Source of the DNA: Patescibacteria group bacterium
Lineage (GTDB): Bacteria > Patescibacteriota > Patescibacteriia > SG8-24
Direction of reading: 5' to 3'
Assembly (NCBI GenBank): GCA_028714475.1
Contig: JAQTNC010000001.1
Location: 22,678 to 86,677, forward strand
DNA length: 64,000 nucleotides
Shown here: in pieces, positions 3,002 to 61,716 of the stretch
How positions within the stretch are numbered: position 1 is the first letter of the stretch
Layout of the letters: every line of letters starts with the position of its first letter
The notes under the pieces: generated by a model
Told to the model about the DNA's origin: nothing
The model's database searches: none
What the model saw: the letters and a program-made list of their open reading frames with translations, nothing else
Program-made: the position numbers and the translations under genes

Positions 3002-3119
3002 GGGTTTAACATCAAACTTCCAACGAATGGATGATACCAGATTACGGGGCGTGAGCGAAGTTCGGCCGACGTCCCTTTGACAGCAAAAGGTTATCAAAAT
3101 CCAGGGTAAAAACCCTGGT

Positions 3120-3128
3120 TGTGGATAA
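3120..3128 (-). promoter_or_regulatory. perfect DnaA-box 9-mer (TTATCCACA on the minus strand)
   Basis: TGTGGATAA, preceded by the hairpin CCAGGGtaaaaaCCCTGG. About 120 nt upstream of the GerMN gene start. Confidence 0.5.
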
Positions 3129-3155
3129 GAAACGTTAATAACAACTAGACGGACT

Positions 3156-6100
3156 CTAAACGCTCGCCTGACCACGGCGCAACACAATGGCGAGCCCGAT
3201 ACCCAAGGCGACGACCACGAGGGCAATCGCGCCGATGACGTACCAGCGCATCATCTGATTCATCGGTTCCTCCACCGCGACCACGGAAACCGGCTTGAAG
3301 TAATCCTGTTCGCTCACGGCCTGGGCTTCGGCGACGAAGAACGACAGCGGCGCGCTTTTTGCCTGAATCTTGCCGGTATCGTCGGTGACGGCGACATAGG
3401 CGGTATGTTCGCCGTCGGTGAGCGAATCCGCCAGCTCATACTCCCAGTTGCCGCTTTCGTCCGCCGTCGTCGTGAGGACGAGCGGCAGGTAGGAGTAGAT
3501 GAAGATGGTCACTGTCTCGCCGGGCCGAGCCTTGCCCTGAAAGGTCGTTTGCGGCGGCGCTTCGCCCTCTGCTGGCGTGACGTTCGCGCTCTCCACGGCC
3601 ATGTCCGCCGATTCCTCGCCCGCAACCCGCGGCTGTTCCATCGGCACGCCGGAAACGATGGCCGCGTCCACTGGCGTCACCTTGATCAGTGACTCACCCA
3701 ACTTGCCCGGACCGAGCGGGTTGTAGCCGTTCTTCACCTCGTCGCTGTCGCTGTAGCCGTCGCCATCCGTGTCGGACTTGAGCGGGTCGGCCCCCCACCG
3801 CTTCTCCACGTCATCCGGCAAGCCGTCGCCATCGGAATCAATCATGAGCACGGCGGGCACGGCTTCATGGTTCGTCGTGGCGTCCGTCCTCACCAAGGCC
3901 GGCGACGCCTGAACCTTGAAGGTGGTCTCCTTGTTCGACTGTAACGGGATGTTCTCCGCGAGAATCGTCGCGGTCGTGGCGGCCGTCGGTTTCTCGGGCG
4001 GCATTTCGGTTGGCGGGGCGGCCGGTGTTTCGCCCGGTTCGGGCTCGGCCGGCTTTTCCGGACGCTGGAACTTGATGACCGTGCCGACGAGCGGCGTTAC
4101 GGCCGTCTGCAACTCATTGAGTTTGGTAGCCGACAGGAGGCCGACGGTCTGCTGGGCCACCTGATCCGGCGTCAAATCACGGCTGACCTGACCGAGATAA
4201 GCGACGCACTCCTCCTTGGTGATGATGCCGGCTTGGCGGCACTTGTCGTTGCGGCTGCGGAATGCCAGCCATTCGTCGCACCGGTTGGCGGGGATGTTGT
4301 TCTTCACGCATTCGGCGTCCAGACGGCTGACGGCATCAGTGATCTGCGCCGAGAGCGGCGCGGTCTCGAAAGGCTTCGTCCCGGTCGGCGTTTCCTGCGC
4401 GGCGGCGCGGATGGCTTCCGGGGGGAGGACAACGACGGTCGAGAGCGGCACTGGCGGCGGAACCGGTGGGATGACGGTGCCCGGCTTCTCCTGGGTCGGC
4501 GGCAACTGGTTGGCGACCAGCGTATAGACCGGCAGGCTGCTCGCGCGCCGACTGCCGGAAACAGCCATGACGACGACGCCGTAGCGACCGTCGGCACTCA
4601 CGGTCGTGTCCCACAGGCCCACCCAACGCCTGGATTCCGGCGCGAAGATGGCGGGCTTATCCTGCTGGAAAGAGCCGTCCGTCGCCTTGATGAGGAAGGT
4701 CACGGACTCCGGCCCGCCCGTGACTTCGGCCGCGAGCAGCGCCACACCCTTGATCGTGTACGGCAAGCCCACCACCTTGGCGGCGAGCGGCGGAAGTGGG
4801 GCTTCCGGCGTTCCGGTGGGCGGCGCGGTCGACGGAATTTCGGTGGTCGGCGGCGTGGAAACCAGATTGTCTATCTTGACGTCAACCGACGCACTTTCGC
4901 CGGCAAACTGCCCATTCACCATGGCCTTGGCCCGGACGCGATACGCGCCGTTAGGCATATGGGCGGTATCCACGGTCGCGCTCCACACTCCGTCTGTCCC
5001 AGGTATGGCGGGCGTCACGAAGGGCGCTGAACTCGCGGTCGCAACCGGCTCAAGGATGAATTGCACGGAACCCGGCTGGCCCTCGACTTCCGCCCGGAAA
5101 ACGACGCTGCCGGAAAGCGTCGCCCCGTTGCCCGGAGCGCCAAGGGTGACCTTGAGCGCGGTCGGCGGCGACGCAGCCTCATTGGTCACGTAAACGCCGA
5201 TGAGTTCGCTCTCGACCCAGTCCGTGCCGAAACGCGCCCTGGCTTTCACCTGATATTGGCCATTGGCCGCGGCCAGGGTGTCCCAAACGGCGTTCCAGAC
5301 CAAACCGGCGGCATCGCTCATGGCCGGCCGCGTGAGCGGTTGCGCGTTGGCGCTGCCGGTGATCGCAAAGACAACCTCGTCAGCCTTGCGGCTCACAGTT
5401 GCGGACAGGCTGGCGGACTGTCGTAGAATCGCGCCGGAAAGCGGCATCGTCACGACCGGGGCGTTCGGCGGCGGCGTCGAGGTCGTCTCGTACCGGAATG
5501 GCCGTGGGCCAGCCGCGGCCAGACGATTGTTGTTGGCGTCGTAGGCCTCAACCGTCAAATCCAGATCCGCGGCGGTCGTGATGGACGGTGTCCATGACGC
5601 TGACCAAGTGCTGTTCGTCTTGGTGCCGTTAACGGAGAAAAGCGGGGTGGCCGTGGCGGAAGCGCCACGCGGATAGACGCGGAAGAGGAGGCGCGAAAGG
5701 CCGCTGCCGGAAGCCGTCGCGGACAGGTTGACGGGACTCACGCGCAACACGACATCGTTCGCCGGGGCAAGAATCTGCACCGTGACCGTGGTGGTTTGAC
5801 CGGGCGCGAAATTGAACGTCCGCGGCCCCTCGCTGTTCAGGCGAACGGATGCCGAATCCAAGGCGTATACATAAAGGTCAAACAAGCCCGTCGTGCCGGT
5901 CGGCGGCGTCCAGTTGGCGGTCCAAGTGTTGGCCGCGGTGGCCGCGACCGTACCGGGGATTTCGGCGAAAGGTGTGCCGGTCGGCGGAACGCCCGGCGGG
6001 AATATTCGGAACTTGACCTGGCTCACGCCGGTGCCGGTGACCGTGGCGGACATCGGCATGGTGGCCGACGAGATGGTGGCGTTCACCGCTGGCGCGCCGA

Positions 6101-9533: not shown

Positions 9534-10241
9534 TTATTTGGCGGTCTCGACAGTCACCTTGGTCATGACGTCGCCGACGGAGATCCTCCGGACCACGTCC
9601 ATGCCGGACACGACCCGACCGAAGACGCTGTAGTTCTTCGGCAACGTCAGGTTGTCCTCGAGCATGATGAAGAACTGGCTGCCGTTCGTATTCGGGCCGC
9701 TGTTGGCCATGGCCACAATGCCAGCCTTGTAATCCAAGGTGACTTTATCATCCTCAAACTTGTAGCCGGGGCCGCCCGTGCCGTTGCCTTTCGGGTCGCC
9801 GCCCTGGATGACGAAGCCGGGCTCCACGCGATGGAAAGTCAGTCCGTCATAAAAGCCGCTCCTGGCCAAGGCGTAAAAATTTGACGCGGCGCGTGGCCCT
9901 TCCGCCGGCAGGAGTTCGAAAACGATGTCGCCTTTGGTGGTGGCGATGCGCACCGTCTTTCCCTTTAGCTCGGACGTCGGCAATATGCCCGGGAAGGACG
10001 TCGGGCGGGGCGGCTTGGCCGTCTCGTCGCTCGGTTCGGCTGGTGTCGACGGCGGCGTTGATGGTTCAACCACGACTTGCGGTTCGGCGGCGGCGTTGCC
10101 GTAACTCTCCGGCGGACGCGCCAAAGCGGATTCCTGATTCATATTCTGTGGGGCGATGGCCGTCTGGTTGCCTTGAGCGCAGCCAGCGCCCAAAAGAGCC
10201 AGCGCGGCCAACGAGACGGTCATGAGATGATTAATTCGCAT
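9534..10241 (-). CDS. peptidyl-prolyl cis-trans isomerase, cyclophilin type (probable lipoprotein)
   Basis: Lipobox LLGAGC. Cyclophilin motifs FHRVEPGFVIQGGDP, GIVAMANSGPNTNGSQFFI, FGRVVSGMDVV. Confidence 0.85.
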   Translation of the reverse strand: MRINHLMTVSLAALALLGAGCAQGNQTAIAPQNMNQESALARPPESYGNAAAEPQVVVEPSTPPSTPAEPSDETAKPPRPTSFPGILPTSELKGKTVRIATTKGDIVFELLPAEGPRAASNFYALARSGFYDGLTFHRVEPGFVIQGGDPKGNGTGGPGYKFEDDKVTLDYKAGIVAMANSGPNTNGSQFFIMLEDNLTLPKNYSVFGRVVSGMDVVRRISVGDVMTKVTVETAK

Positions 10242-10277: not shown

Positions 10278-11555
10278 TTACCGGACTGCTCGCTCTCGCT
10301 CAAGGGCACTTTCGGTATAGACGTTGGCCGCGTTCCAGAGCAGCCAGCCGCTTGCGCCTTGCTCGTCGCTCGCGCGAATCTGCAGCCGCACCTTGTTCGC
10401 GTCATACGTCGCGCCCATGTCGAAATCCTGCAGCCACGGTCGGTAAGTCGCGAGCTTCGCTTCCTCCCCTTTTGCCTCGGCTTCGGCCTTCATCGTCGCA
10501 ATCAGCTTCTGCCCGCGAATCATGTTGTCGCGGACGACCTCGTAGGGATGCTCGGCGGGATTGGCAAAACCTTGGAAACCGTCCGCGTAGTGCGACGGAT
10601 ACACCATCGGCGAGATGAAATCGAAATGCGGCAGGGCGTCGCGCAACATCTGACCAATGTTGAGGTCGTATTCATGCTGCCACATCGTGAGTCCGAAGAG
10701 ATCCACCGAAATCGGAATGCCTTGCTTCTGCCGCAGCTGCAGATCCAGATAGGCGAAGAACTCGCCCAAGACCTCGTGCTTGGGACGCTCACCGTCATAA
10801 AAGGGATACTGCAGGCCTTTCAGGTTGCCGTCGGACGGGAAACGGATGTAATCGAACTGAACCTCGTCGAAGCCGGATTCATAGGCCTCGCGGGCGATGG
10901 CGGCGTTGTATTCCCAGACCTCCTGGCTGGCCGGGTCGAGCCAGCGGATGCCGCGGTTGTCGCGCCAGACGGCGCCGCCCTGGCGGACCGCGAGCTTGGG
11001 CCGCACCGCCACGAGCGCCGAATCCTGGAAGACCGGCACGCGCGCGATGAGGTACAGGCCCTCGGCGTGGAGGCGCTTGGACAATTCGCGCAGGTCGCCA
11101 AGGGACGGCTTTTTGGCGACCGCCACGTTCAGCGCTTCGTCGCGCGGTTTGAAGGCCAACTCATACTTGGAATCCTTGAGGTCAATGACGAGCGCGTTGA
11201 TTTCCGTGCGCTTGGCGATGCCCAGGACCCGTTCAAGCACGATCTTGTTCCCGTACCCGTCGGAGGTCAGGTACAGGCCTTTCACCTTTTCCGGCAACGG
11301 CTGATGTTCGACGCCGGGGATGATGGGCGGCGGCAGACCCGGGCCGTCGTCGGTCCGCACCGCGCCCCAGTCAGGGCGGAACGATTCAAGGGCTATCTGA
11401 CGCTGATAGAACAGGGTCGCGTCAAAATACGCCATGGCCGGCAGGGCGGCCAGAAAAACGATCAGCGCTCCGTGACGCAAAATGAAATCGCGAATTTTGG
11501 CGAGTGCTGCGGCGCGGCGTTCGGCGGGCGTAGGTTCATCGTGGAAGGGCCACAT
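10278..11555 (-). CDS. putative glycoside hydrolase (TIM-barrel, DUF4015-like), N-terminal TM anchor
   Basis: 425 aa. TM helix ALIVFLAALPAMAYF. Core ...GLYLTSDGYGN...INALVIDLKD...EGLYLIARVPVFQD...FDEVQFDYIRFPSDG... resembles the putative glycosyl hydrolase family found next to polysaccharide genes. Confidence 0.55.
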   Translation of the reverse strand: MWPFHDEPTPAERRAAALAKIRDFILRHGALIVFLAALPAMAYFDATLFYQRQIALESFRPDWGAVRTDDGPGLPPPIIPGVEHQPLPEKVKGLYLTSDGYGNKIVLERVLGIAKRTEINALVIDLKDSKYELAFKPRDEALNVAVAKKPSLGDLRELSKRLHAEGLYLIARVPVFQDSALVAVRPKLAVRQGGAVWRDNRGIRWLDPASQEVWEYNAAIAREAYESGFDEVQFDYIRFPSDGNLKGLQYPFYDGERPKHEVLGEFFAYLDLQLRQKQGIPISVDLFGLTMWQHEYDLNIGQMLRDALPHFDFISPMVYPSHYADGFQGFANPAEHPYEVVRDNMIRGQKLIATMKAEAEAKGEEAKLATYRPWLQDFDMGATYDANKVRLQIRASDEQGASGWLLWNAANVYTESALERERAVR

Positions 11556-11621
11556 AGGAGTACTGGAGTACTGAAGTGCTGGAGTGCTGGAGTATCTTCA
11601 GTACTTCAGCACTTCCCAGCT
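11556..11621. repeat. ctgaagtgctggag-family imperfect palindromic intergenic element
   Basis: ggagtactggagtactgaagtgctggagtgctggagtatcttcagtacttcagcacttcccagcttcagaac. Confidence 0.7.
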
Positions 11622-12977
11622 TCAGAACTTCTCAAATCCTTTCCTCCCCAGCAACTTATACATGTGCTTCTTGCCGGCCTCCACGCCGGGTTGGTCATAG
11701 GCATTGACGTCGAGGAGTTCGCCGGCGACGGCCGTGGCGATCTGGAAGAAATTGACGAGCGCGCCGACGGCTTCGGGGCTGACGCGCGGGACGAAGACAG
11801 TGCCGTTCGGCCGGCCATTTTCGGTAAGCGCCAGACTGGTCGCCGCGCGTTCGGCGTGGAGGATTTCCCCGAGCCGATGGCCGGCCATGTAGGCCGTGCC
11901 TTCGATGTCCGGGTAGGGGTTCGGCAGGCGGAAATCCGCGTCCGGACTCTCGACCTCGATGAAGGTCAAGGTCTTGTCGAACGGCCCCTCATTATATAAC
12001 TGAACCTGTGAGTGCTGGTCGGTCGCGCCGAGCGCGGCGACCGGGGTAAAACCGTGGTTAACGACCTTGCCGTGGCGGTCGAGCCTCTTGCCGAGCGACT
12101 CGGCCCAGAGCTGACGGAACCAGGAACCGAACTCGCGGAGGCGTTCGCCGTAAGGCATGAGCACGGTGATGTGCTGACTGCGGCGGACATAGCCGTCGTG
12201 CTGAAGGCCGGCGAACATGAGCGGGCCGTTGTCCATCGTCTTGGCCGCGGCGAACTCGTCGCGCACGGCGCGACAGCCGACGACGAGGCGCCGCACGGGG
12301 ATGCCGGCGCAAGCCGCCGGAAACAGTCCGACCGGCGTGAGCACGGAGAATCGTCCGCCGATGTCAGCGGGCACCGGCAGGGTGCGGTAACCTTCGCGAT
12401 CAGCGATCTTGCGCAGCGTTCCTTTTTCCGTGTCAGTCGTGGCGATGACGTGGCGGGCGTGCCGATTCACGCCCACGGCTTTCACCAAACGGTCGCGAAG
12501 CAGAACGAACGCGCTCATCGGCTCGATGGTGTCGCCGGATTTGGAAATGACATTGATGGCCGTCTTGCGCCAATCAAGGTCGCGAAGCAGCGCGGCCATC
12601 TCGTCCGGATCAGTGTTCGCGCCGATGAAACGGATCTCCATCCCCTTCCCCGCCGGCTTCAGTGCCTTGACGAGCATCCGCGCGCCCAAGTCCGAGCCGC
12701 CGATGCCGATGACGACGAGCGTCTTGAACTCGCGCCCAACGGTCTTGGCCATCGCCTCGACGGCCTTCAAGTCAGCGGTTCGTTCCGGAATCGCCATGAA
12801 CCCGAGCTGGCCGGAGCGCCATTGCTTGATGACCGCCGCCCGGACAGGCTCCAACCGACGGGCCAAATCAATCAAGTCGGCCTTGGGCATCATCATGTTG
12901 CCGCGTTCCGCCGTCATGCGCGAATAGTCGAAGCGAACGAAAGGCTTTACTTCCGCCTTTTTCGTGGTTTTAGGCAT
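11622..12977 (-). CDS. pgi: glucose-6-phosphate isomerase (short ~450-aa type)
   Basis: Motifs VVIGIGGSDLGARM, SKSGDTIEP, GGRFSVL..VGL, and the C-terminus YDQPGVEAGKK. Confidence 0.9.
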   Translation of the reverse strand: MPKTTKKAEVKPFVRFDYSRMTAERGNMMMPKADLIDLARRLEPVRAAVIKQWRSGQLGFMAIPERTADLKAVEAMAKTVGREFKTLVVIGIGGSDLGARMLVKALKPAGKGMEIRFIGANTDPDEMAALLRDLDWRKTAINVISKSGDTIEPMSAFVLLRDRLVKAVGVNRHARHVIATTDTEKGTLRKIADREGYRTLPVPADIGGRFSVLTPVGLFPAACAGIPVRRLVVGCRAVRDEFAAAKTMDNGPLMFAGLQHDGYVRRSQHITVLMPYGERLREFGSWFRQLWAESLGKRLDRHGKVVNHGFTPVAALGATDQHSQVQLYNEGPFDKTLTFIEVESPDADFRLPNPYPDIEGTAYMAGHRLGEILHAERAATSLALTENGRPNGTVFVPRVSPEAVGALVNFFQIATAVAGELLDVNAYDQPGVEAGKKHMYKLLGRKGFEKF

Positions 12978-15723: not shown

Positions 15724-17247
15724 TCACTGTTGACTCCCAACGGACGCTTCCCGCGTGAGCCAATCCTTGAGCGCCGCCGTGGCGCGGACGTCGTCCTCGT
15801 TGTAGCGGATGACGGCGTCGAGCTTTTTCTTGTCGCCTTTCGCGAGCCAGGCCTCGTAGAACTCGACCGACTGGCTGCCGGTCGCGACTTGCTTGCCGCG
15901 CTCGAAGCCGATGTACCCGCCGATGTCCTTGAGGCCGTAGAAGTAAAGCGGAAAGACGACGTCTTCCTTGATAATCTCGTTCAGGTCGATCATCGCCTCC
16001 TGAAAACGCGCGAGCGCCGGCGAGCCGCCGTAACGCGCCTCAAGCGCCGTGAGCCGTGTCATCTCATAATCGCCGTAGTGATAGACGACGTAACGATCCG
16101 GCAGGCCGCCGAGCCAGTGCAGGAAAAGCTGCCACATTTTTCCCTCGTCCTCTGGCTTGGTCGCGACGATGTGCTCGTAACGGTCGCCGTCGGTGTCACG
16201 CAGGAGGAAACCGAACAGGTAATCCGCCTGGCGCGGCGGATCGCTCTCGATGTCGAAATGGATTTCTAATGGCAACCCTTTGACTCGCTTCGCTCGCTCA
16301 GGGAATATTTCTGTTCTGTCCCGAGCTTGCCTGCCCTCCGTAGCTTTTGCGGAGGAGGGTCGAGGGACAGAAACGAGTGATGGCGGCAATTCAGTCGGCC
16401 GGCGAAAAAAATGTCGCCGCTCGATAAGCGCCCGCGCCTGGATTTTCATCCGCTCCAGGGTCTTCCTTTTGAGCTCGCCGCCAGGCTCAACGAGCGACTC
16501 GATGTCCGCCAGCGCGAAATCATGGACGGTCGTGATGCCTCGTTCGCGCAAGGCGGCCGCGGTCTTGTAACGGAGGTTGTAGAGAAGCGCGATGTCGTCC
16601 TTGGTCTCGACGGCGGCCACGCATTCATGCAGCCACGGCGAGACGCGGCAGCCGGAATTGAGGTGCGGACCGGGTCTCTCTCCGGCAAGAATGGCCCGCA
16701 GCCGCGCCAATGCGTCCTCAAACTGCGGTGCGAACTCATCGAGATCCGTGCCGAGGCGCACGCCTTGGCCATTAACGGCGAAACCGTGACGCGGCCGCCG
16801 GCCTTGGATGTGCGAAAGCAATTCGCCGTGAAGAGCGGCCTGCAAACGATGCCCATCATTCAGCCGGTCAACGAAATTCTTGACGTCTACGGCCACGTAG
16901 TGCCAGCCGCCGAACTCCGACGGCATGCCGTCGGTGCGCTCAAGCAAATCCGGTTCAGAAATCAGGTCGCCGTACTTCAGCATACCGCCGCGAATCCGCG
17001 CCTCGCCTTTCTTCATGAGCGCGAGCGTTCTTTTTGCGCGTTCGGCGACGGTCTTGCCCTTCGGCTTCGCCCACATGCCGCCGCCGAGTGCCTCATCCTC
17101 GGCGAAGATGTCGCCGCACAAAAGCATGTCCGCGAGCTTGGTGCGCCGCTTGGCCTGGCCGCCGAACCGCTCGAAATACGGCCAGTTGGGACAGGCGTGA
17201 AATTTGTACAGGAGGGTGGGAGTGATGATGACGGAAGATTTTGTCAT
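15724..17247 (-). CDS. TM0106-family RecB-like putative nuclease (PD-(D/E)xK Cas4-like N-domain plus RNase-H-like 3'-5' exonuclease C-domain)
   Basis: ATG at 17247 begins MTKSSVIITPTLLYKFHACPNWPYFERFG. The C-terminal part IHFDIESDP...YLFGFLLRD...VVYHYGDYEMTRL is DnaQ/RNaseH-like. The 39 extra N-terminal codons of the track ORF are the translation of repeat element A and are not expected to be coding. Confidence 0.7.
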   Translation of the reverse strand: MTKSSVIITPTLLYKFHACPNWPYFERFGGQAKRRTKLADMLLCGDIFAEDEALGGGMWAKPKGKTVAERAKRTLALMKKGEARIRGGMLKYGDLISEPDLLERTDGMPSEFGGWHYVAVDVKNFVDRLNDGHRLQAALHGELLSHIQGRRPRHGFAVNGQGVRLGTDLDEFAPQFEDALARLRAILAGERPGPHLNSGCRVSPWLHECVAAVETKDDIALLYNLRYKTAAALRERGITTVHDFALADIESLVEPGGELKRKTLERMKIQARALIERRHFFRRPTELPPSLVSVPRPSSAKATEGRQARDRTEIFPERAKRVKGLPLEIHFDIESDPPRQADYLFGFLLRDTDGDRYEHIVATKPEDEGKMWQLFLHWLGGLPDRYVVYHYGDYEMTRLTALEARYGGSPALARFQEAMIDLNEIIKEDVVFPLYFYGLKDIGGYIGFERGKQVATGSQSVEFYEAWLAKGDKKKLDAVIRYNEDDVRATAALKDWLTREASVGSQQ

Positions 17248-17365
17248 AAATTGTAGCGGCGCGGTGCGGCGCGAAGACTTGGAGCGCCGCACGGGCGGTA
17301 TGGGCCGCCCGGTGTTTGCCGAGCGATTTCCTATTCTACGCGAGGCAAACCTGTCGCGCACCACC
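17248..17365. repeat. three-hairpin structured repeat element, copy A (abuts the start codon of the RecB-like nuclease)
   Basis: Sequence gtagcggcgcg GTGCGGCGC gaagacttgga GCGCCGCAC GGGCGG tatg GGCCGCCC ggt GTTTGCC gagcgatttcctattctacgcgag GGCAAAC ctgtcgcgcaccacc. About 85% identical to copy B. Stems that differ between copies carry compensatory changes. Confidence 0.7.
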
Positions 17366-17380
17366 TTGAACGAACCCTGA

Positions 17381-17412
17381 AGAAATAGGTGGGGCGAGAC
17401 AGGGTCTCGCCG
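17381..17412 (-). terminator. rho-independent terminator of the ABC permease gene
   Basis: Minus-strand GGCGAGACcctgTCTCGCC followed by CACCTATTTCTTC. Confidence 0.7.
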
Positions 17413-18669
17413 CTACTCATACCTCAAAGACGTAATCGGATCCAATGCGGCGGCTTTGCGAGCAGGTTGTAACCCGAAGACAATGCCGGTCACGGCCGCG
17501 ACGATGGCCGCACCCACGAAAGCTTCCACAGAAACTAGATACGGGACATTAAGCCCATTCAAATTCATGATGAGCACAACCACAAGCGTGAGCAGGAAGC
17601 CGATGCCGCCGCCGATGATGCCGCCAGCCGTGGTGAGCGCCACGGATTCGGCCAGGAACTGCAAGAGGATGTCGTGGTTCTTGGCGCCGAGCGCCTTGCG
17701 CAAGCCGACCTCGCGGATGCGTTCGGTGACGGAAACAAGCATGATGTTCATGATGCCGATGCCGCCGACGACGAGCGAGATGGCGGCCAGGAACGCCAGG
17801 AACCAAGTGATGACGTCGGTGATCGTGTTAAGACGGTCGGTTATGTCCTTGGCCGACATGATCAGGAAATCATCCTTGGTCGGGTCAGTTATGCGGTGCC
17901 GCTTGCGCAGAAGCCGCGTGAGCTCGTCCATCATTGGTGCCACGCTCGCCTCGTCATTGGCGCGCAAGTCTATCTCGACGAGCTTGTCATTGCCGATCAG
18001 CCGTTTCTGCATAAACCGTAGCGGCATGACGGCCATGGAATCAACATCGATGCCCATCATGCCGCCCATTGGTTTCAAGGTGCCGATGACCTCCATCGGG
18101 ACGCCCTTGACCTTGACTTTTTGGCCGATTGCTTCCGCGCCACCGAACAGCTTGTCCTTGGCCTTGCTGCCAAGCAGGATGTATGAGGACATGGACCGCT
18201 CCTCGTCATCGGTGAAATACCGGCCAGTTCCAACCGTAATCATCGGGACAATGGTGGGGTAGTCAGCCGACGTTCCGATCAACATGGTTCGGTACTCCTC
18301 GTTGCCGTAACGCACGAACTCCTGGCCGCTGACGATGCCAGCCACGGCCATGGCATGCGGCACGTTCTTCCTGTCCTTCATCGCATTCAAGTCGTCATAA
18401 GTGAGCGACATCGGCGCGGCGCCCAGCATGAGCGCATGCATCGAATTCTCCTGCGACGCTCCCGGCACGGCTGGGTTGATGGAAACGAAATCGCGGCTGG
18501 CGAAACTTTCCACGTAACCGATGATGGCCGCTTTCACGGCCACGCCGAGCGAGATGATGATGGTCACGGAAAAGACGCCGATGACGATACCAAGGAGCGA
18601 CAAGGCCGTCCGCACCTTGTTGCGGCTCAAATTCTTGAAAGCGTTCTTAGTGGCGGGGATGAGGCTCAT
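17413..18669 (-). CDS. ABC transporter permease, MacB/FtsX type
   Basis: ATG at 18669 begins MSLIPATKNAFKNLSRNKVRTALSLLGIVIGV. Four TMs and a periplasmic domain. A terminator hairpin GGCGAGACCCTGTCTCGCC plus T-run sits directly 3' of the gene. Confidence 0.85.
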   Translation of the reverse strand: MSLIPATKNAFKNLSRNKVRTALSLLGIVIGVFSVTIIISLGVAVKAAIIGYVESFASRDFVSINPAVPGASQENSMHALMLGAAPMSLTYDDLNAMKDRKNVPHAMAVAGIVSGQEFVRYGNEEYRTMLIGTSADYPTIVPMITVGTGRYFTDDEERSMSSYILLGSKAKDKLFGGAEAIGQKVKVKGVPMEVIGTLKPMGGMMGIDVDSMAVMPLRFMQKRLIGNDKLVEIDLRANDEASVAPMMDELTRLLRKRHRITDPTKDDFLIMSAKDITDRLNTITDVITWFLAFLAAISLVVGGIGIMNIMLVSVTERIREVGLRKALGAKNHDILLQFLAESVALTTAGGIIGGGIGFLLTLVVVLIMNLNGLNVPYLVSVEAFVGAAIVAAVTGIVFGLQPARKAAALDPITSLRYE

Positions 18670-18673
18670 GGGA

Positions 18674-19903
18674 TTACTCGTAACGCAACGACTCAATGGC
18701 ATCTAGCCGTGCGGCGGCCATGGCCGGACCGACGCCGAAGCCCAAGCCGATGCCGATGGAGACAAACAGGGAAACGGCGACGGCGACGCCGGAAATCATG
18801 TAGTTCCAGGCCAAACCGTAATACGCGGCGATGAATCCGACTCCGTAAGCGATGAGCGCGCCCAAAATCAGCCCGATTATTCCGCCGGTGAAGGCGATGA
18901 ACGAACTCTCGAGCAGGAACTGGATGAGGATGCGCCGCGGCTTGGCGCCAAGCGCCTTCCGGAGGCCGATCTCGCGGGTCCGTTCGCGCACGGCGACATA
19001 CATGATGTTCATGATGTTGATGCCGCCGACCAGAAGCGAGATAGCGGTCACGAGCACGAGAAAAGCGTTGATGGCGGTGGTAACGCTGCTCAAGATGCTC
19101 AAGGCCTGATTGACTGAACGCACCGAGAAGTCATCATTGCTCGCATCCTTGATGTGGTGCCGCCGCCGCAAGGTCGTCTCGATTTCCGACTTGAGCCACT
19201 CGATGTTATCGGCGGAATCAGCTTTGACGGTCGCGGCATTGATGTGATTGATGCCAAGGAGGCTCTTCTGCACCGTGGTCGAGGGAATGAACACGGCCTT
19301 GTCGAGCCCCTGACCGAGGGTGCTTCCCTTCTCGGCCAGGACGCCGATCACCTGAAAGCTGACATCCTTGATGCGCACGCTCTGTCCGATCAAACGGCTC
19401 CCGGAAGGGTTCAGGTCAGCCGCTACCTTGTAGCCGAGCACCACGACGCGAGAGTAGGATTCCACGTCGCTCACTCCGAAAAAACGACCGTCCTCCAGCT
19501 TGGCGTCCTGAAGAACGGCCATCTCCTCGCTCGTCCCATTCACGCTCGTGATGAACGATTTCTGGCCGTAGCTTATGGCAGCCGACGTCGAGACCATAGG
19601 CGAACCGGCGATGACGTGCGGCAGCTTCCGCAAGGCGCGATAATCCTTTTCCGTAAGCGTCGTCGTGATGACGCCCATGACCGAGGCCGGCGGTGCGTCT
19701 TCCGAGCTGCCACCCGGCATAACATTGATGAGGTTGGTGCCCAGCGCGGTAATCTGTCCCATGATCAGGTCCTGGGCGCTTTTTCCCACCGAAGAAACCG
19801 CCACCACCGACATGACGCCGATGATGACGCCAAGCATGGTCAAGACCGTACGGGTCTTGGCCGCCTGAAGGGTTCGCAGGGAATAAATCGCGTCCTTGAG
19901 CAT
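18674..19903 (-). CDS. ABC transporter permease, MacB/FtsX type (paralog of the downstream permease)
   Basis: Begins MLKDAIYSLRTLQAAKTRTVLTMLGVIIGV and ends with a C-terminal FtsX region. A 4-nt gap separates it from the next permease. Confidence 0.85.
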   Translation of the reverse strand: MLKDAIYSLRTLQAAKTRTVLTMLGVIIGVMSVVAVSSVGKSAQDLIMGQITALGTNLINVMPGGSSEDAPPASVMGVITTTLTEKDYRALRKLPHVIAGSPMVSTSAAISYGQKSFITSVNGTSEEMAVLQDAKLEDGRFFGVSDVESYSRVVVLGYKVAADLNPSGSRLIGQSVRIKDVSFQVIGVLAEKGSTLGQGLDKAVFIPSTTVQKSLLGINHINAATVKADSADNIEWLKSEIETTLRRRHHIKDASNDDFSVRSVNQALSILSSVTTAINAFLVLVTAISLLVGGINIMNIMYVAVRERTREIGLRKALGAKPRRILIQFLLESSFIAFTGGIIGLILGALIAYGVGFIAAYYGLAWNYMISGVAVAVSLFVSIGIGLGFGVGPAMAAARLDAIESLRYE

Positions 19904-19904
19904 C

Positions 19905-19998
19905 GGGGTGAAGGTTGATACTAGGCACTAGGCTCTAGGTTCTAGAGGTAACTAGTGCCAAGTGCCAAGTGCCTAGTGCCTAGTGTCTAGTGCCTAGT
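19905..19998. repeat. ctaggcactag / ctagtgcctag palindromic element inside the ABC efflux operon (between ATPase and permease genes)
   Basis: ctaggcactaggctctaggttctagaggtaactagtgccaagtgccaagtgcctagtgcctagtgtctagtgcctagtgtctagg. Low GC relative to the flanks. A shorter relative ctagtcactagccactag sits at 10255-10275. Confidence 0.75.
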
Positions 19999-20000
19999 GT

Positions 20001-20678: not shown

Positions 20679-20790
20679 AGGATGAGCGGCCTTAAACGTA
20701 GCGGCGGGGCTTGCCCCCGCACCACAATAGACGAAAGGCAATCATCATAACGGATATTTCGTTTCGGTGATGGCGGGTCAAGCCCGCCCG

Positions 20791-22509
20791 CTACTTCTTA
20801 TTCGTGGCGACGACCACTTCATCGCCCTCCGCCAGACCGGACAGCAATTCGACATAATCGTTGTTCTCAAGCCCGACCTGGATATCCTTCGTGACCGGTT
20901 GGCCATTCACGAGCACCTGGACGGTCTTCTTGCCGACCGCGTCCTTGATGGCGCGGACGGGAACTCGCAGGACATTGTCACGTTGCGCGGTCGAAATGTC
21001 GAGATTCGCGGTCATGCCGGAACGCAGGCGCTCGTCATCCTTGTCGAAGACTATCTTGGTCTCGTAAAAAATGACCCCTTCCACGACCTTCTCGGCCGGC
21101 TGGATGCTGATGACCTTGCCAGTCCAGATTTCATTCACGCTGAAAGCGTCCAGGGTGATGTTGACCGGGTCGTTGACCTTGACGCGCGCGATGTCCACCT
21201 CGGAAATGTTGGCGGTGATCTCGAACCGATCCTTGGCGTTCAACGTCACGGCCACCTGGCCGGGCTGAACCGTCTCGCCGGGATTGAAAGGCAAATCGGT
21301 GACGATGGCGGTGAGCGGCGCGCGAATCGAGCGCTTGGCCAAATCCGCCTGCAGGCTCGCGAGGGTCGCTTCGGCAGATGCCACCTGGGCGCGTTGGGCG
21401 TCTATCTCTTCCGGCCGCGAGCCGGTCTTCTTGAGGTTATAGGACGCTTCCGCCTGGTTAACCGCGGCGGTCGCGCTGTCCACGGCATGGGCGGCGCTGG
21501 TCACGGCCGATTCGGCGTTGGACACGGCGATTTCCGCGGCGGTGATGTCCGTCGCGTTCAGGCGCTCCTGAAGATCCAACGCGCTCTTGTCCGCGTTCAC
21601 CTTCGTCAACATGGCGTTCAGGGACGACTGGGCGGTACTCGCGTTGATTTGATAGGTGGACAAGGTGGCGGCCGGCAAGCTCGGGGCATATTGTAAAACT
21701 TTGGCGCAGGCGTCAGCATGGCGCTTGACCGCCGTGAGCGCGTTCACCACCGCGTCGTAATTGTTCGTCATGCCGGTCGCACCACCCACGGCGCGGGCGG
21801 ATGCGGCCGCGGCAGACAAGGCCGTGAGCGCGGTCTTGGCCTCGCGCCGGGTGCTCGTGGCATCAGACTGGGATTGAGAGTCGGAAGATGAGAAGAGAAG
21901 CAGGTCGTTCAAGTCGAACATCGGGCTGGTCAGGCGATTCACGGCATCGCTCGCCGTGGTGGACGCGCTGTCGTAATCGTCCTGCAAGGCAGAAACTTTC
22001 CCTTCGTCCTGGGTCGTCGTCCTCGCCTTCACGTTCTCGTAACTGCGGCGGGCGTTCGTGAGCGCGGTCTCGGCATCGGCCTCGGCGGCTACGGCTGCCG
22101 TGTATTGTTGGCGCGCCGCTTCCACAGCGGTCTGGGAAACCAACATGTCCGCGGCCGTCGCACCGGCCTGCAGTTCCCGCAACCGGGCGCGGGCCGAAGC
22201 CACGGCGGCCTGCTGAGAAGCCACCCGGGCAGACGCGTCGCGCGTGTCCAACTGAATCAACAGGTCGCCTTCCTTGACCTCGGCGCCTTCCTTGACGGCA
22301 ATCTTGGTGATCTTGCCGCTGACCTCCGGCTGAAGGCTGATCTTGGACGAGGGGGCGATGGAGCCGGTCACCGACACTTCGGAAATGACCGTGCCGCGGG
22401 TGATTTTTTCCGTTTCGTAGGTTGTTTTAGGGCGCGTCAAACCGTAAACCGCCCCGCCGGCAACAACCACGCCGAGACCAATGAGCAGAATTTTTACAGA
22501 TTTTTTCAT
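20791..22509 (-). CDS. efflux transporter periplasmic adaptor (HlyD/MacA membrane-fusion family) with long coiled-coil
   Basis: N-terminal TM, lipoyl-like segments (GTVISEVSVTGSIAP...ISLQPEVSGKITKIAVKEGAEVKEGDLL), and a long Ala/Gln coiled coil. It is first in the operon with the ATPase and the two permeases. Confidence 0.8.
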   Translation of the reverse strand: MKKSVKILLIGLGVVVAGGAVYGLTRPKTTYETEKITRGTVISEVSVTGSIAPSSKISLQPEVSGKITKIAVKEGAEVKEGDLLIQLDTRDASARVASQQAAVASARARLRELQAGATAADMLVSQTAVEAARQQYTAAVAAEADAETALTNARRSYENVKARTTTQDEGKVSALQDDYDSASTTASDAVNRLTSPMFDLNDLLLFSSSDSQSQSDATSTRREAKTALTALSAAAASARAVGGATGMTNNYDAVVNALTAVKRHADACAKVLQYAPSLPAATLSTYQINASTAQSSLNAMLTKVNADKSALDLQERLNATDITAAEIAVSNAESAVTSAAHAVDSATAAVNQAEASYNLKKTGSRPEEIDAQRAQVASAEATLASLQADLAKRSIRAPLTAIVTDLPFNPGETVQPGQVAVTLNAKDRFEITANISEVDIARVKVNDPVNITLDAFSVNEIWTGKVISIQPAEKVVEGVIFYETKIVFDKDDERLRSGMTANLDISTAQRDNVLRVPVRAIKDAVGKKTVQVLVNGQPVTKDIQVGLENNDYVELLSGLAEGDEVVVATNKK

Positions 22510-22593: not shown

Positions 22594-23058
22594 TTAATGA
22601 AGGGGGCATGAGCCGTTACGAATCGGCATCGCCTCCATCTGTTCGACAATTTTCTTCATGTATTTGGCGTAATTGGATAGCTCACTGTCATTCAGCACCG
22701 ACAGTATCTTTTCAGATAAGGCAAGCTGGTGCTTCTTCATGGCCACGAAGAACCGCCGTGCTTTGGGCGTAAGCGTGATGACGAGCGCGCGCCTGTCCGT
22801 CGAGTTTTGCTTGCGCTGGATGTAACCCTTCTTGAGCAGGCCGTCCAAGAGCTGGGTAGCGGCGCTGCTGGTCACGCCGAAAAAACCCGCGATGTCCTTG
22901 ACTCCCAGGCCTTCATGGTCGCCCAGCACCAGCAAAGCCAGGCCCTGCGGATGAGTTAGATCGTGTTTTGCGAGCAGGGCGGAAACGCACAAGATCGTCT
23001 TTCGACGAAGAATCTCGACATCTTCCCAGAATTCCTCGAGTTGTTGGCGACGGTTCAT
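22594..23058 (-). CDS. MarR family transcriptional regulator
   Basis: 154 aa. wHTH segment GLALLVLGDHEGLGVKDIAGFFGVTSSAATQLLDGLLKKGYIQRKQNSTDRRALVITLTPKARRF. Sits immediately upstream of the efflux operon. Confidence 0.85.
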   Translation of the reverse strand: MNRRQQLEEFWEDVEILRRKTILCVSALLAKHDLTHPQGLALLVLGDHEGLGVKDIAGFFGVTSSAATQLLDGLLKKGYIQRKQNSTDRRALVITLTPKARRFFVAMKKHQLALSEKILSVLNDSELSNYAKYMKKIVEQMEAMPIRNGSCPLH

Positions 23059-23061
23059 AGG

Positions 23062-23145
23062 CAGAATGCCGGAGTTCTGGAGTGCTGAAGTGCTGGAGTC
23101 TTCAGCACTCCAGCACTTCCCCGCCCCAGCACTATTACATTAGGT
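23062..23145. repeat. ctgaagtgctggag-family imperfect palindromic intergenic element
   Basis: ggagttctggagtgctgaagtgctggagtcttcagcactccagcacttcc. Confidence 0.7.
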
Positions 23146-28949: not shown

Positions 28950-29030
28950 AGAAGTCAGTGCGGGAGCGCAGAAGTACTGAAGTGCTGAAGAGGGAAAAGC
29001 TTGACAACTGTTGAACGGCCCAACAACTTC

Positions 29031-29094
29031 TCCAGCACTCCAGCACTCCAGCACTCCAGCACTCCAGCACTCCAGCACTCCAGCACTCCAGCAC
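29031..29094. repeat. (CCAGCACT)8 perfect 8-bp tandem repeat inside a ctgaagtgctggag-family palindromic element
   Basis: Eight uninterrupted CCAGCACT units. The upstream partner agtactgaagtgctgaag lies at 28972-28991. The track ORFs 28527..29078 and 28831..29094 (VLECWSAG repeats) are translations of this repeat. Confidence 0.9.
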
Positions 29095-29174
29095 TTCCTA
29101 CTGGTTCGCCGTCGTTAGCCATGATAATCTTAGGTTAGCGGACGGTTCACGCCTTTAGAGCCGCCCCCATCCGC

Positions 29175-30094: not shown

Positions 30095-30185
30095 TGCCAA
30101 GTTGTGGAGTAATGGAGTCGTGGAGTAGTGAAGCGACTATGAAAAACAAAATCGACTTTTCTACTTCACGACTTTACAACTTAAC
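30095..30185. repeat. gtggagtagtgaag-word palindromic element
   Basis: gttgtggagtaatggagtcgtggagtagtgaagcgact...agtcgacttttctacttcacgactttacaac. Confidence 0.6.
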
Positions 30186-30197
30186 GACTCCAACCCC

Positions 30198-31259
30198 CTA
30201 CTCTCCCCGCAAATGCCCCAGTATCCCCGGATTCTCCACGTCCTCCTTGAATTCGCGGCGATAAATGTCGATGAGCGCGAGGGCCACGGAAACGGTCAGC
30301 GGGCCGAGGATAAAACCGGCGAAGCCGTAAAACTCGATGCCGCCCACGATGGAGAGAAGCACCAACAGAGGATGGATGTCCGTGCGCCGCTGAACGAGCT
30401 TGGGCTGAAGGAAATTGTCGATCGCGCCGATGATGGCCACGGAGATGACGGTCAAAACCACGGCCGCCCCCAACTGTCCGCTCACGACCAGGTAAACGAT
30501 GGCGGGCACGGTCACGATCGAGGTCCCGACGACCGGCAACAGGCTGGAAACGCCCGTCATGGCGCCCCAGAAAATCGGTGCCGGCACGCCGGTCGCCCAA
30601 AAGGCCACGGCGGCAATGATGCCCTTGATGATGCCGACCACGATGGTGCCGTTCAGGACGGCGGCCACCGACTGCACCAGGCGCTGGAAGATCATCTCGT
30701 CGTTCTCGTCGCTCAAGGGCGAGAGGAACAACAACTCCTTCTTGATGCGGGTGCCGTCCTTGAGCAGGTAATAGGCAGAGAACATCATGACGACGGCGTT
30801 CAGGAATACGTCCATGGCATTCGAGAAGAACCCGATGATGTCCGCCGACAGCTTTTCCAGGACGGTCGTCAATATCTTCAGCAGTTCGCCGGAAATAGCC
30901 GGGATCTGCGCATGCCACGAAACCGGCAAGACCCGCCGCAGGGCTTCCATCAGGTTATTGATGTCAAGAAGATGGCCGGCGTTGCCGAGATACGCGCCAA
31001 TCTCGTTGACGAAGGCGGCCAGGAAAAAGATGGTCGGCGACAGGAAAGCCGCCATCACCAGGATGATGGTCAGGAACGCGGCCGCCACCTCGGATTTAAG
31101 ATAGCGGTAGATGAACTTAAAGATTGGCCTCGTCACGATGGCGATGACGCCGCCGAAAGCCAAGGCCACCAGGTAAGAACGGAAAACCAGCACGGTGAGC
31201 GCGATGCTGCCGGCCAAGCAGGACAGGAAGAAATAGGTCTGGAATTTCTTGTAGTTCAT
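30198..31259 (-). CDS. AI-2E family transporter (PerM/YdiK-like)
   Basis: 353 aa with 8 TMs. Characteristic segments FFLSCLAGSIAL, MFSAYYLLKDG, GLFFGAMTGVSSLLPVVGT. Confidence 0.85.
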   Translation of the reverse strand: MNYKKFQTYFFLSCLAGSIALTVLVFRSYLVALAFGGVIAIVTRPIFKFIYRYLKSEVAAAFLTIILVMAAFLSPTIFFLAAFVNEIGAYLGNAGHLLDINNLMEALRRVLPVSWHAQIPAISGELLKILTTVLEKLSADIIGFFSNAMDVFLNAVVMMFSAYYLLKDGTRIKKELLFLSPLSDENDEMIFQRLVQSVAAVLNGTIVVGIIKGIIAAVAFWATGVPAPIFWGAMTGVSSLLPVVGTSIVTVPAIVYLVVSGQLGAAVVLTVISVAIIGAIDNFLQPKLVQRRTDIHPLLVLLSIVGGIEFYGFAGFILGPLTVSVALALIDIYRREFKEDVENPGILGHLRGE

Positions 31260-31351
31260 GCCTTAATTATACGGCTTTTTTCGGCGGGAATCAAACCCGG
31301 CTCCGTTTCGGGCGCCCACGGCGCTTGGCCGACGGGCCCAAACACAAAAGC

Positions 31352-32264: not shown

Positions 32265-32370
32265 CAATATGCCCGGCTGGGTGAATCGCGAGCTGGCGAG
32301 CGATTCACGGGCAGCACGGGCTGCCCGGGGTTTGGCGAGCAATCACCGATTCTTTGCGAGCCAAACGAGC
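32265..32370. repeat. three-hairpin structured repeat element, divergent copy C
   Basis: Sequence GTGAATCGC gagctggcgag GCGATTCAC GGGCAGC acg GCTGCCC gggGTTTGGCgagcaatcaccgattctttgcgagGCCAAAC. The architecture matches A/B, with different stem-1 and stem-2 sequences that still pair. Hairpin 3 is nearly identical to copy B. Confidence 0.6.
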
Positions 32371-32501
32371 GGAGCCGTGAGGCGCACTTAATGTTGCGCC
32401 GGAACGGTCCGCGAGCGAAGCCGAGTGCAGTGCGCCCGGACCAGCGGCTGCCTGAAAAAGAAGGGCCGGTGACACCGGCCGTTGATAATCAAGTTGCCGT
32501 T

Positions 32502-59958: not shown

Positions 59959-60079
59959 AAAAAATCGTAGCGGCGGGGTGTGGCGCGAAGACTTGGAGCG
60001 CCACACGGGCGGCATGGGCCGCCCCGGGTTTGGCGAGCAATTTCCGATTATATGCGAGCCAAACTGTCCCCGCACCACC
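59959..60079. repeat. three-hairpin structured repeat element, copy B (abuts the fpg start codon)
   Basis: Sequence gtagcggcggg GTGTGGCGC gaagacttgga GCGCCACAC GGGCGG catg GGCCGCCC cgg GTTTGGC gagcaatttccgattatatgcgag GCCAAAC tgtccccgcaccacc. Relative to copy A, the C>T in stem 1 is matched by G>A on the other arm, and CC>GC in stem 3 is matched by GG>GC. Confidence 0.7.
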
Positions 60080-60126
60080 ATAATACATTTCGGTGGTGGA
60101 GGGGTAAACCCTCCCGCTACAATCTG

Positions 60127-61716
60127 TTAAATCAACGGACAGCCCGTCATCTCGGCCGGCTGGGGCACGCCGAGGAGCTTAAGCACCGTCGGCGCGGTGT
60201 CGGCAAGCATGCCGACCGGCGGCATGATGGAAAGGTCGCCGCCGACCGTTTCTCCCGAAGGCGAAGCCTGCCCCTGGAACTCCCGCCCAACCACCAGGAA
60301 CGGCACCGGGTTCGTGCTGTGTTCCTTGTCAATTTCGCCGGTCTGCAGGTTCAGCACCTCTTCGCCGTTGCCATGATCGGCCGTCATGACCATCACTCCG
60401 CCCGCCTCCAGAAGCGCCGGGACGAGGCGGCCGAGGCACTGGTCAATCACCTCCACGCCCTGTTTGGTCGGCTCGAACTTGCCGGTGTGACCGACCATGT
60501 CGGCGTTGGCAAAATTGCAGATGATGAGGTCGAATTTCTGGTCCTGGATTTCCTTGATGATGCGGTCGGTGAGTTTCGGCGTGGACATGGCTGGCGCCTG
60601 GTCGTAGGAGGAAACGCGCGGCGACGGGATGATGACGCGTTCCTCGCCGGGAAGCGGCTCCTCGCGCATGCCGTTCATGAAGAAGGTGACGTGCGCATAT
60701 TTTTCCGTCTCGGCGATATGCAGCTGCTTCAGCCCGGCGTCGGACACGACCTTGGCCAGGCAGGTCTCGACCATCTCCGGCGGATAGGCGACGTGCGCCG
60801 GCGTCCCTTTCTCGTACTGCATCATCGTGGCGAAATACAGGTCCTTGATCGGCTCGCGCGCGAACTTGCTGAAATCCGGCACGCAGAAGGCCTGGGCGAT
60901 CTGGCGCGCGCGATCCGGCCGGAAGTTGGCGAAGATGAGGGCGTCGCCGTCTCGCACCGGCGCCACCGGCTGGCCGCCGGCCGTGATGATGGTCGGCACA
61001 AATTCCTCGTCATAGACCTTGTTCGCGTATGACTCCTCGATGGCCTTGACCGGATCCTCATGCGTCTTGTCCGCGCCCTTGCCGGTGATGGCGTTATACG
61101 CCTTTTCGACGCGATCCCAGCGGTTGTCGCGATCCATCGCCCAAAAGCGGCCGGACAGGTCGGCGATGCGGCCACTGCCCAACTGCTCCATCCGACTCTG
61201 CAGATTACGGACGAACTCGATGCCGCTGTTGAAAATGCTGTCGCGGCCGTCCAGGAAAGCGTGCACGGCAATTTTCTTGATGCCGTTCTGGGCCGCCAGC
61301 TGGACCAGCGAGTAGATGTGCTCGTCCGAGCCGTGAACGCCGCCGGGACTGACGATGCCCATGACGTGGAAGGTCGAGTCGTTCTTCTTGCATTGTTCGA
61401 CCGCGCCCAAAAAAACCTCGTTCTTGAAAAACGAGCCGGTCTGGATGGCCATGTTGATGCGAGGCAGGGACTGGTAGAAGATCTTGCCGGCGCCGATGGT
61501 CAGGTGACCAACTTCCGAATTGCCCATCTCGCCCCAAGAGAGGCCGACGGCCTCGCCGGAAGCGCGCACCGTCACGGTCGGATAGGTGCGGATGAGCTCG
61601 TCGAAAACCGGCGTGTTCGCGGCCTCGACCGGATTGCCCTCGCCCGGCGGGGCGACGCCCCAACCGTCACAAATGAGGAGCAGGACCGGCTTCGGTTTTC
61701 CCCGAACAGGCATCAT
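60127..61716 (-). CDS. gpmI: 2,3-bisphosphoglycerate-independent phosphoglycerate mutase
   Basis: LLICDGWG, EVGHLTIGAGKI, ADMVGHTG, MVMTADHGN. Confidence 0.9.
   Translation of the reverse strand: MMPVRGKPKPVLLLICDGWGVAPPGEGNPVEAANTPVFDELIRTYPTVTVRASGEAVGLSWGEMGNSEVGHLTIGAGKIFYQSLPRINMAIQTGSFFKNEVFLGAVEQCKKNDSTFHVMGIVSPGGVHGSDEHIYSLVQLAAQNGIKKIAVHAFLDGRDSIFNSGIEFVRNLQSRMEQLGSGRIADLSGRFWAMDRDNRWDRVEKAYNAITGKGADKTHEDPVKAIEESYANKVYDEEFVPTIITAGGQPVAPVRDGDALIFANFRPDRARQIAQAFCVPDFSKFAREPIKDLYFATMMQYEKGTPAHVAYPPEMVETCLAKVVSDAGLKQLHIAETEKYAHVTFFMNGMREEPLPGEERVIIPSPRVSSYDQAPAMSTPKLTDRIIKEIQDQKFDLIICNFANADMVGHTGKFEPTKQGVEVIDQCLGRLVPALLEAGGVMVMTADHGNGEEVLNLQTGEIDKEHSTNPVPFLVVGREFQGQASPSGETVGGDLSIMPPVGMLADTAPTVLKLLGVPQPAEMTGCPLI

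Follow-up and report, generated by a model that had tools for sequence, protein, structure and literature searches.

Patescibacteria possess tiny, compact genomes that are thought to carry little repeat DNA. In the 64,000-nt stretch analysed here (the window), which derives from a MAG deposited at NCBI as 'Patescibacteria group bacterium', a structured sequence recurs three times between genes, and in two of these places it fills the gap from one gene almost exactly to the start of the next. The question raised by this locus is what such an element is: a regulatory RNA, a structured spacer between cistrons, or DNA that spreads as a repeat. A previous sequence-only reading had described three copies of a three-hairpin element and had proposed a shared control of DNA-repair genes. 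As discussed below, we consider it on balance probable that the elements belong to a family of nested palindromic DNA repeats, REP-like in kind and restricted to one lineage, that is carried by a Patescibacteria (CPR) genome.

The three copies, named A, B and C, lie where that reading had placed them, all on the + strand, and each contains a module of 86-87 nt composed of three hairpins. In module A (17264-17350), hairpin 1 (H1, 17264-17292) has a 9-bp stem and an 11-nt loop, hairpin 2 (H2, 17293-17310) has a 7-bp stem, and hairpin 3 (H3, 17314-17350) is formed by 7 bp, a GA/GA internal loop and then 3 bp; a closing stem pairs positions 17259-17263 with 17355-17359. Module B extends from 59978 to 60064 (H1 59978-60006, H2 60007-60024, H3 60028-60064) and module C from 32281 to 32366 (H1 32281-32308, H2 32309-32326, H3 32330-32366), the latter being enclosed by a stem in which CCGGCT (32273-32278) faces AGCCG (32373-32377). 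A covariance model built from A, B, C and one copy found outside the window (model R1) scores the three modules at 119.9, 121.5 and 107.7 bits, respectively, and in a scan of the 64-kb window it detects nothing else above 20 bits. A repeat search of the window grouped the same copies as families D9 and D10. Folding of each copy recovers the hairpins that had been described from the letters and adds the closing stem to them, that is, the predicted structure is a four-way junction, with z-scores of -2.5 to -4.2 against shuffles on either strand.

Sequence changes among the copies follow the predicted pairing closely. Across the four sequences, 97.5% of the pair cells are paired; both sides have changed in 8 of the 31 stem pairs, a level that none of 500 shuffles reaches, and pairing falls to 31-49% in slid-register controls. 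All variable pairs of the hairpins switch from Watson-Crick to Watson-Crick, save a single G·T, and unpaired cells are confined to the closing stem. In other words, the earlier observation that the stems change and yet keep pairing is borne out, and A, B and C are a real family whose hairpins are kept via matched changes on both arms.

The kind of pairing that is kept bears on the kind of molecule involved. Strand-specific G·U pairs are typically abundant in structured RNAs. Among the 120 pair cells of the module there are 116 Watson-Crick pairs and a single G·T, and A and B reach nearly equal fold energies on either strand, C being somewhat more stable as the + strand. This near-pure Watson-Crick switching is the pattern shown by palindromic DNA repeats, and the sequence-only reading had been right to keep its interpretation broad (RNA, or single-stranded or cruciform DNA). 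Moreover, matched changes in quasi-palindromes can arise without selection, via intrastrand templated correction.

The same strand symmetry weighs against the main alternative, a minority possibility that we nevertheless take seriously, in which the elements would be selected structured RNAs located between cistrons and read in the polycistronic mRNA. In one form, such an RNA might be an RNase III-like processing site, leaving a protective 3' hairpin on the upstream message and a near-leaderless mRNA downstream; in another, it might bring stop and start codons together for re-initiation. What keeps this RNA reading standing is that, on the gene-sense strand, G·U pairs lengthen the closing and outer stems. 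H2 and H3 are near-identical in two distant genomes, which suggests a sequence-level constraint beyond simple pairing.

In A and B the module is nested within a second type of palindrome. The basic unit of this frame is 29 nt long and comprises an unpaired GTAGCGG tag, a G+C stem-loop of 6-8 bp and an (A)CCACC tail. Six such units are arranged in the window as three inverted pairs (A, B and D), all six beginning with GTAGCGG and having their GTAG outward; the units of a pair are spaced by 20-50 nt, and either each unit can form its own hairpin or the whole pair can fold into one long hairpin. The window contains 14 occurrences of GTAGCGG where 5.9 are expected, and none of 100 shuffles has as many.

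Specifically, element A (17253-17416) is an inverted REP-like pair with ends GTAGCGGCG...CGCCGCTAC, located between the stop codon of an FtsX permease and the ATG of a nuclease at 17247, and its unit A1 (17388-17416, minus strand) reads GTAGCGGCGAGACCCTGTCTCGCCCCACC. Element B (59967-60120), which runs from GTAGCGG to CCGCTAC, lies between the stop codon of an iPGM gene (60129-60127) and the fpg ATG at 59958; its unit B1 (60092-60120, minus strand) reads GTAGCGGGAGGGTTTACCCCTCCACCACC, and its unit B2 reads GTAGCGGCGGG / CCCCGCACCACC with module B in the loop. The two inverted pairs are 154-164 nt long. In both, the unit nearest the downstream gene hosts the module, A2 and B2 being 29-nt units that hold the 87-nt module inside their loop with the unit's stem kept. 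The tail GCACCACC, which had been described as conserved in all three copies, is accordingly a feature of A and B, as it is the 3' tag of A2 and B2 and belongs to the frame rather than to the module; it is not found in C, where the GTAG frame is absent.

Recognition of the frame also changes the reading of the flanks. The hairpins upstream of A and B had been taken for the terminator of the preceding gene. They are the partner units A1 and B1, and an intrinsic-terminator identity was rejected, as a terminator scan gives no call at either unit and neither has a T-run. Furthermore, three copies are not the whole family, since a related fourth element, D (20698-20794), had been missed. D is an inverted pair without module, placed between the HlyD stop codon and the ABC ATPase ATG at 20678, and is made up of unit D2 (20698-20726, + strand, GTAGCGGCGGGGCTTGCCCCCGCACCACA) and unit D1 (20766-20794, minus strand, GTAGCGGGCGGGCTTGACCCGCCATCACC). 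It represents an empty frame: on the minus strand it carries the same GTGGTGCGGGG ... CCCCGCCGCTAC as B, with a 5-nt loop in place of the three hairpins. Its predicted fold is a single long hairpin with a z-score of about -4 on both strands, and outer-stem pairing is seen in A and B as well. The sole terminator-like site called near D points against the direction of the genes.

The occurrence of the module outside the frame, in copy C and in a further MAG, leads to a second alternative, namely that the module is a piece or miniature of another mobile element, secondarily inserted into REP loops. It could be a MITE derived from IS200/IS605-like ends, or one arm of a tRNA-gene-targeting integrative element. 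The boundaries of the module are constant, from a GTG start after GG to a CAAAC end, as would suit a discrete insert. Divergence between A and B is much higher in the frame than in the module, units A1 and B1 agreeing at 17 of 34 positions while identity over the wider copies of A and B is 85%. Units B1 and D1 agree at 27 of 34 positions. We regard this origin as quite improbable, since neither transposase nor integrase is found in the window or on the 12-kb contig that carries the outside copy, and target duplication is absent in the window. The three pairs show no consistent target-site duplication, as A is flanked by TATGA and AATTT, B by CAGATT and GATTTT, and D by AAGAA and GTTTA. The lack of a mobilising enzyme extends to RAYT proteins, none of the three enzyme types being present among about 50 window ORFs, and no empty/filled polymorphism of a site was seen; look-ups with exact proteins returned only identical short contigs ending inside modules. 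The sequence-only reading had stated that identity with the end of a known IS or MITE would downgrade its regulatory-RNA interpretation. The embedding of A and B in GTAG-tagged, REP-like inverted pairs comes near to that outcome.

The genes flanking A, B and C are on the minus strand throughout. On this 154-kb contig, A has as neighbours an FtsX/MacB permease and a TM0106 RecB-like nuclease (MDD5251030.1), B an iPGM and Fpg (MDD5251068.1), and C a methyltransferase and a 241-aa gene without assigned function, while D is found within a MarR-HlyD-ABC ATPase-FtsX-FtsX gene string, that is, a MacAB-type transporter operon. Each of the pairs A, B and D has same-direction genes on its two sides and starts 0-6 nt after the stop codon. 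In A, the gene at 17413-18702 takes its stop codon from the right-hand GTAG, whose TAG occupies 17415-17413 (minus strand), and in D the TAG of a GTAG tag likewise serves as stop codon of the upstream gene. On the other side, the elements had been said to end 3-6 nt before an ATG; they are indeed close to the starts, at slightly different distances, A ending 5 nt before the nuclease ATG and B 8 nt before that of fpg. These starts are the true ones, as the nuclease has 507 aa in the NCBI annotation and Fpg needs its N-terminal MPEL, and the longer ORFs running through A and B had correctly been called spurious. A practical consequence is that the elements make gene callers over-extend the nuclease and fpg ORFs; they also break short-read assemblies.

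Such an arrangement, almost exactly from stop to start, in one orientation, with a stop codon inside the GTAG of A and D and with D inside an operon, is what a selected intercistronic RNA would be expected to show. In fact, all four elements of the window have the same orientation relative to genes, and the fixed orientation, together with the gene-proximal position of the module in A and B, could be due to an RNA-level function. Copy C behaves differently. In the minus-strand sense it is located downstream of an intrinsic-terminator-like site (32480-32464) of canonical type and 162 nt upstream of the next start, ATG 32118, a position that fits poorly with an RNA joining two cistrons. The promoter that had been placed about 120 nt from C was not detected by a promoter scan. 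The same scan flagged a promoter in the spacer of B and none at A or D. It should also be considered that intergenic gaps in this compact genome are often only 3-36 nt, and that an element placed in gaps as short as these adjoins both the stop and the start codon for this reason.

The translation signals of the downstream genes have also been considered in this context. The fpg, nuclease and ABC ATPase genes, which follow hairpin elements, have no Shine-Dalgarno sequence; other genes possess AGGAGG, or a TATAAT 6-9 nt before the ATG. The latter motif is found before several genes (window 31259-31275, and upstream of 6719 and 12831 in L036, a contig of a related genome) and looks like a sign of leaderless transcription, judging by its position. 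The difference between the two groups of genes counts in favour of an intercistronic RNA; against it, fpg is devoid of a Shine-Dalgarno sequence in all relatives, whichever filler occupies the gap. A leaderless -10 box within CGCTACAAT / CGCTACGAT was also considered and rejected, the spacing to the ATG being inconsistent by eye (2, 5 and 19 nt) and no promoter being found at A or D.

Long hairpins unrelated to the module or the units are also present in stop-to-start gaps. In particular, tandem arrays of 8-nt units, each with an inverted complement behind it, fold into long hairpins that take up such gaps, also inside the ABC transporter operon. Arrays of CTTCAGCA/CTCCAGCA are found at 2026-2117, 11550-11627, 23056-23139, 28956-29101 and 30099-30190, and one of CACTAGGC at 19904-20000; the same array design with other units occurs in relatives (L093 1-100, L095 about 9900-9995). 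That the genome of the window and those of its relatives fill these gaps with unrelated long hairpins counts in favour of a function between cistrons, and may inform how operon genes are expressed in this lineage.

Further information comes from the orthologous sites. The iPGM-iPGM-fpg gene order is found in five relatives (L036, L093, L095, L096 and L097), whose Fpg proteins are 62-84% identical. Scanning about 82 kb of DNA from these relatives with R1 gave no match, and the element is missing upstream of their fpg genes. Each relative has a different palindrome in the iPGM/fpg spacer (L036 9876-10000, L093 1-111, L095 9604-10000, L096 5957-6027, L097 4093-4225), the spacer measuring 71-397 nt where complete, as that of L093 ends at the contig end; in L095 it holds a hairpin of about 210 nt. 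The L036 spacer hairpin and hairpin 3 of B share GAGCAATTTCCG, in opposite orientation relative to fpg. This comparison suggests that intergenic hairpins may turn over fast in this clade, and the lack of conservation at orthologous sites speaks against an RNA selected to stay between these cistrons. As a side observation, the tandem iPGM genes (cofactor-independent phosphoglycerate mutase), which in the window occupy 60127-61716 and 61721-63301 and are 4 nt apart, are duplicated likewise in L036, L095, L096 and L097, the four relatives with contig sequence on that side.

The orthologous sites also bear on the proposal from which the analysis started, that is, a cis-regulatory RNA shared by DNA-repair genes and possibly responsive to damage. 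Two of the four window elements directly precede repair genes, A the TM0106 RecB-like nuclease and B fpg. D sits between HlyD and the ABC ATPase, C precedes the 241-aa gene, the UvrD gene of the window (46040-48130) has no element, and five relatives do without it upstream of fpg. In addition, the sense in which the module is defined is antisense to the genes, its pairing is strand-symmetric, and no Rfam family is matched. The repair-gene link is weak, and a shared regulatory RNA of this type is extremely improbable.

Beyond the window and its relatives, the module is very rare. A scan of 185,579 species genomes for the exact pattern of hairpin 3 returned 35 loci, with one true relative among them (L014/L108, GCA_021824285.1), which scores 95 bits with R1 as L014 and is also scored by R1 as L108. 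The same exact pattern gave 51 loci in metagenome contigs, none of them real, and three patterns scanned against viral contigs gave none either; blastn against plasmids and phages found nothing relevant. The peptide that results from spurious translation of the element (motif SPNPGRPMPPV) had no match among 5.8 billion proteins. Two further hairpin families came up in these scans and are unrelated to the module. A different conserved hairpin, CTTGAGTTTGNCGAGCNNGTCCTCAGACNNGCGAGNCAAACTCTCC, is shared by L001 (4714-4749) and L030 (1527-1562), which are unrelated MAGs (Eisenbacteria, Chloroflexi), and hairpins of the type gagGTTTGGCGAGCC...GGCGAGACAAACctc occur in seven soil/sediment metagenome contigs (L044, L060, L070, L075, L079, L085 and L087) with compensatory inner-stem changes and similar flanks.

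The outside copy is probably from a Patescibacteria MAG; the best named relative of its HMG-CoA reductase is from Patescibacteria, at 43% identity. In L014, the tRNA-Pro gene (3109-3183) has its 3' end in triplicate (3149-3196, 3255-3302 and 3488-3535), a 97-nt direct repeat occupies 3167-3263 and 3506-3602, and the whole region 3109-3602 corresponds to about 8650-9150 of L108; these repeats resemble leftover attachment sites of integrated elements. The module is found in this repeat-rich spacer, between the second and third copies of the tRNA-Pro 3' end. For an origin as a fragment of another mobile element, this provides a third context, a duplicated tRNA-Pro 3' end, besides the REP loop of A and B and the unrelated stem of C; the phage, plasmid and viral collections, on the other side, hold nothing similar. 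For an intercistronic RNA the outside copy is unfavourable, as its direction is that of its upstream gene, opposite to the copies of the window; among the five elements known, it is the only one with this orientation.

One more hint on copy number is given by assemblies. Short-read assemblies often break at repeats. Two Logan contigs of SRR22315509, identical to the window, stop within modules, L110 in hairpin 3 of B (2132-2228) and L111 in hairpin 1 of C (1-20), which is a weak hint of more copies elsewhere in the genome, and to the same extent a weak hint for the REP-like reading.

Taken together, what argues for REP-like repeat DNA is the presence of GTAG units, the empty frame D, the agreement with the layout published for REPs (PMC3733652), the Watson-Crick pairing and the covariation, and moreover the lack of conservation at iPGM/fpg, the rarity of the module, and the repeat-rich spacer and opposite orientation of the outside copy. 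Against it stand the absence of a candidate enzyme among the window ORFs, the small numbers (only three pairs and four modules), the lack of site polymorphism and of a consistent target duplication, the uniform orientation, the sense-strand G·U pairs and the near-identity of H2 and H3.

If the elements are REP-like DNA, the following course of events can be envisaged. The units would spread as non-autonomous DNA, being recognised as single-strand hairpins, and the precedent for the mobilising enzyme would be the REP-associated, RAYT-type tyrosine transposase. They would land in very short gaps between same-direction genes and in this way come to touch both stop and start codon. Pairing might then be kept in either of two ways: the hairpin shape itself could be the recognised feature, or intrastrand templated repair could carry a change in one arm over to the other. 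After placement, the elements would be co-transcribed and would probably act like other REPs, that is, by protecting mRNA 3' ends or by attenuating read-through. An unlikely variant would give the leading role to the module, either as a self-contained, structure-targeting miniature mobile element of a new kind that homes to hairpin loops or tRNA-like ends and is shared by distant Patescibacteria, or as an RNA whose four-way junction serves as a mark of intercistronic processing sites in these genomes, which are poor in Shine-Dalgarno sequences and prone to leaderless messages; in this variant the REP frame would be only its usual landing site.

At the gathering threshold, Rfam has no match in the window. 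Two structural candidates were discarded: integron attC sites, whose R-box consensus by eye does not fit GTTTGSC/GSCAAAC, and a tRNA-like cloverleaf, as ARAGORN gives no tRNA in the window. By score, the nearest Rfam family is the sbcD motif (RF01757), which in a local search matched copy A (17221-17406, + strand) over the whole 155-position model at 32.0 bits, below the gathering threshold of 40, with an E-value of about 1e-4. Kinship with this motif would make the elements RNAs or ssDNA acting near repair genes, for instance by mimicking DNA or by signalling single-strand initiation. The likeness is one of G+C-rich hairpins of similar length in the same order, namely hairpins of 9 bp and 7 bp, then one with the GA/GA internal loop, then one of 17 bp starting with CCUGU, together with the vicinity of repair genes; sbcD itself precedes operons that contain repair genes, and an ssDNA role was weighed in the original description (PMC2864571, Weinberg et al. 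2010). The resemblance does not extend to the rest of the family, as B, C and the outside copy have no match to sbcD at E<=10. The whole-window Rfam search leaves the match unlisted, and unrelated families reach 25-29 bits on other hairpins. Part of the match, the '17-bp hairpin', is the pairing of two REP units. Moreover, the known sbcD members are limited to 8 syntenic Burkholderiales sequences, for the most part on plasmids; they are single-copy loci in the sense orientation of a 5' UTR and are followed by a terminator, whereas the elements described here are multi-copy and the match, on the + strand, runs antisense to the neighbouring genes. Membership in sbcD was rejected on these grounds, and a more distant relationship is very doubtful.

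MITEs and palindrome-associated IS200/IS605 miniatures are likewise small, non-coding, intergenic and multi-copy; they possess subterminal hairpins or inverted repeats at their termini, and may be nested inside other repeats. The terminal inverted repeats of the pairs, that is, the two ends of A and GTAGCGG/CCGCTAC in B and D, recall such elements. Unlike MITEs, the pairs have neither a target-site duplication nor a parent IS that could be found, and the ends of the module are not inverted repeats of each other.

The closest resemblance is to REPs tagged by GTAG. RAYT tyrosine transposases are regarded as the enzymes that mobilise them, and classical REPs are present in tens to hundreds of copies per genome; in the 64 kb of the window, six units were counted and no RAYT gene was found among about 50 ORFs. 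In the survey of Di Nocera et al. 2013 (PMC3733652), GTAG-tagged REPs are described as having an unpaired GTAG at one end and stems of 6-13 bp, with complementary stem variants. Two units may form an inverted dimer, spaced by 20-100 bp, from which a single large stem-loop can arise. They are found mostly downstream of coding regions, between same-direction or convergent ORFs, some of their loops hold self-complementary inserts of up to 27 bp, and they are known to act at the RNA level, a property that an intercistronic RNA would share (PMC3733652). Units A1, B1, D1 and D2, with their 29 nt and stems of 6-8 bp, correspond to the GTAG-tagged type, and A, B and D, with their outward GTAG, inverted arrangement and folding into one stem-loop, to the head-to-head, BIME/REPIN-like dimers. 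Likewise, a short conserved motif is found at the other end of the unit, stem variants are complementary between copies, the location is just after coding regions between same-direction genes, and the families are often species-specific. The host differs, in that Patescibacteria are not named among the phyla in the portion of the survey consulted. If confirmed, a REP-like family with a nested four-way-junction insert in Patescibacteria would extend the reach of GTAG-tagged palindromes and would give a simple system to study how hairpin repeats spread and stay paired. What is new with respect to the REPs described in that survey is the large structured insert carried in the loop of one unit, which at 87 nt and three hairpins is far above 27 bp, and the fact that this insert also occurs independently of the frame.
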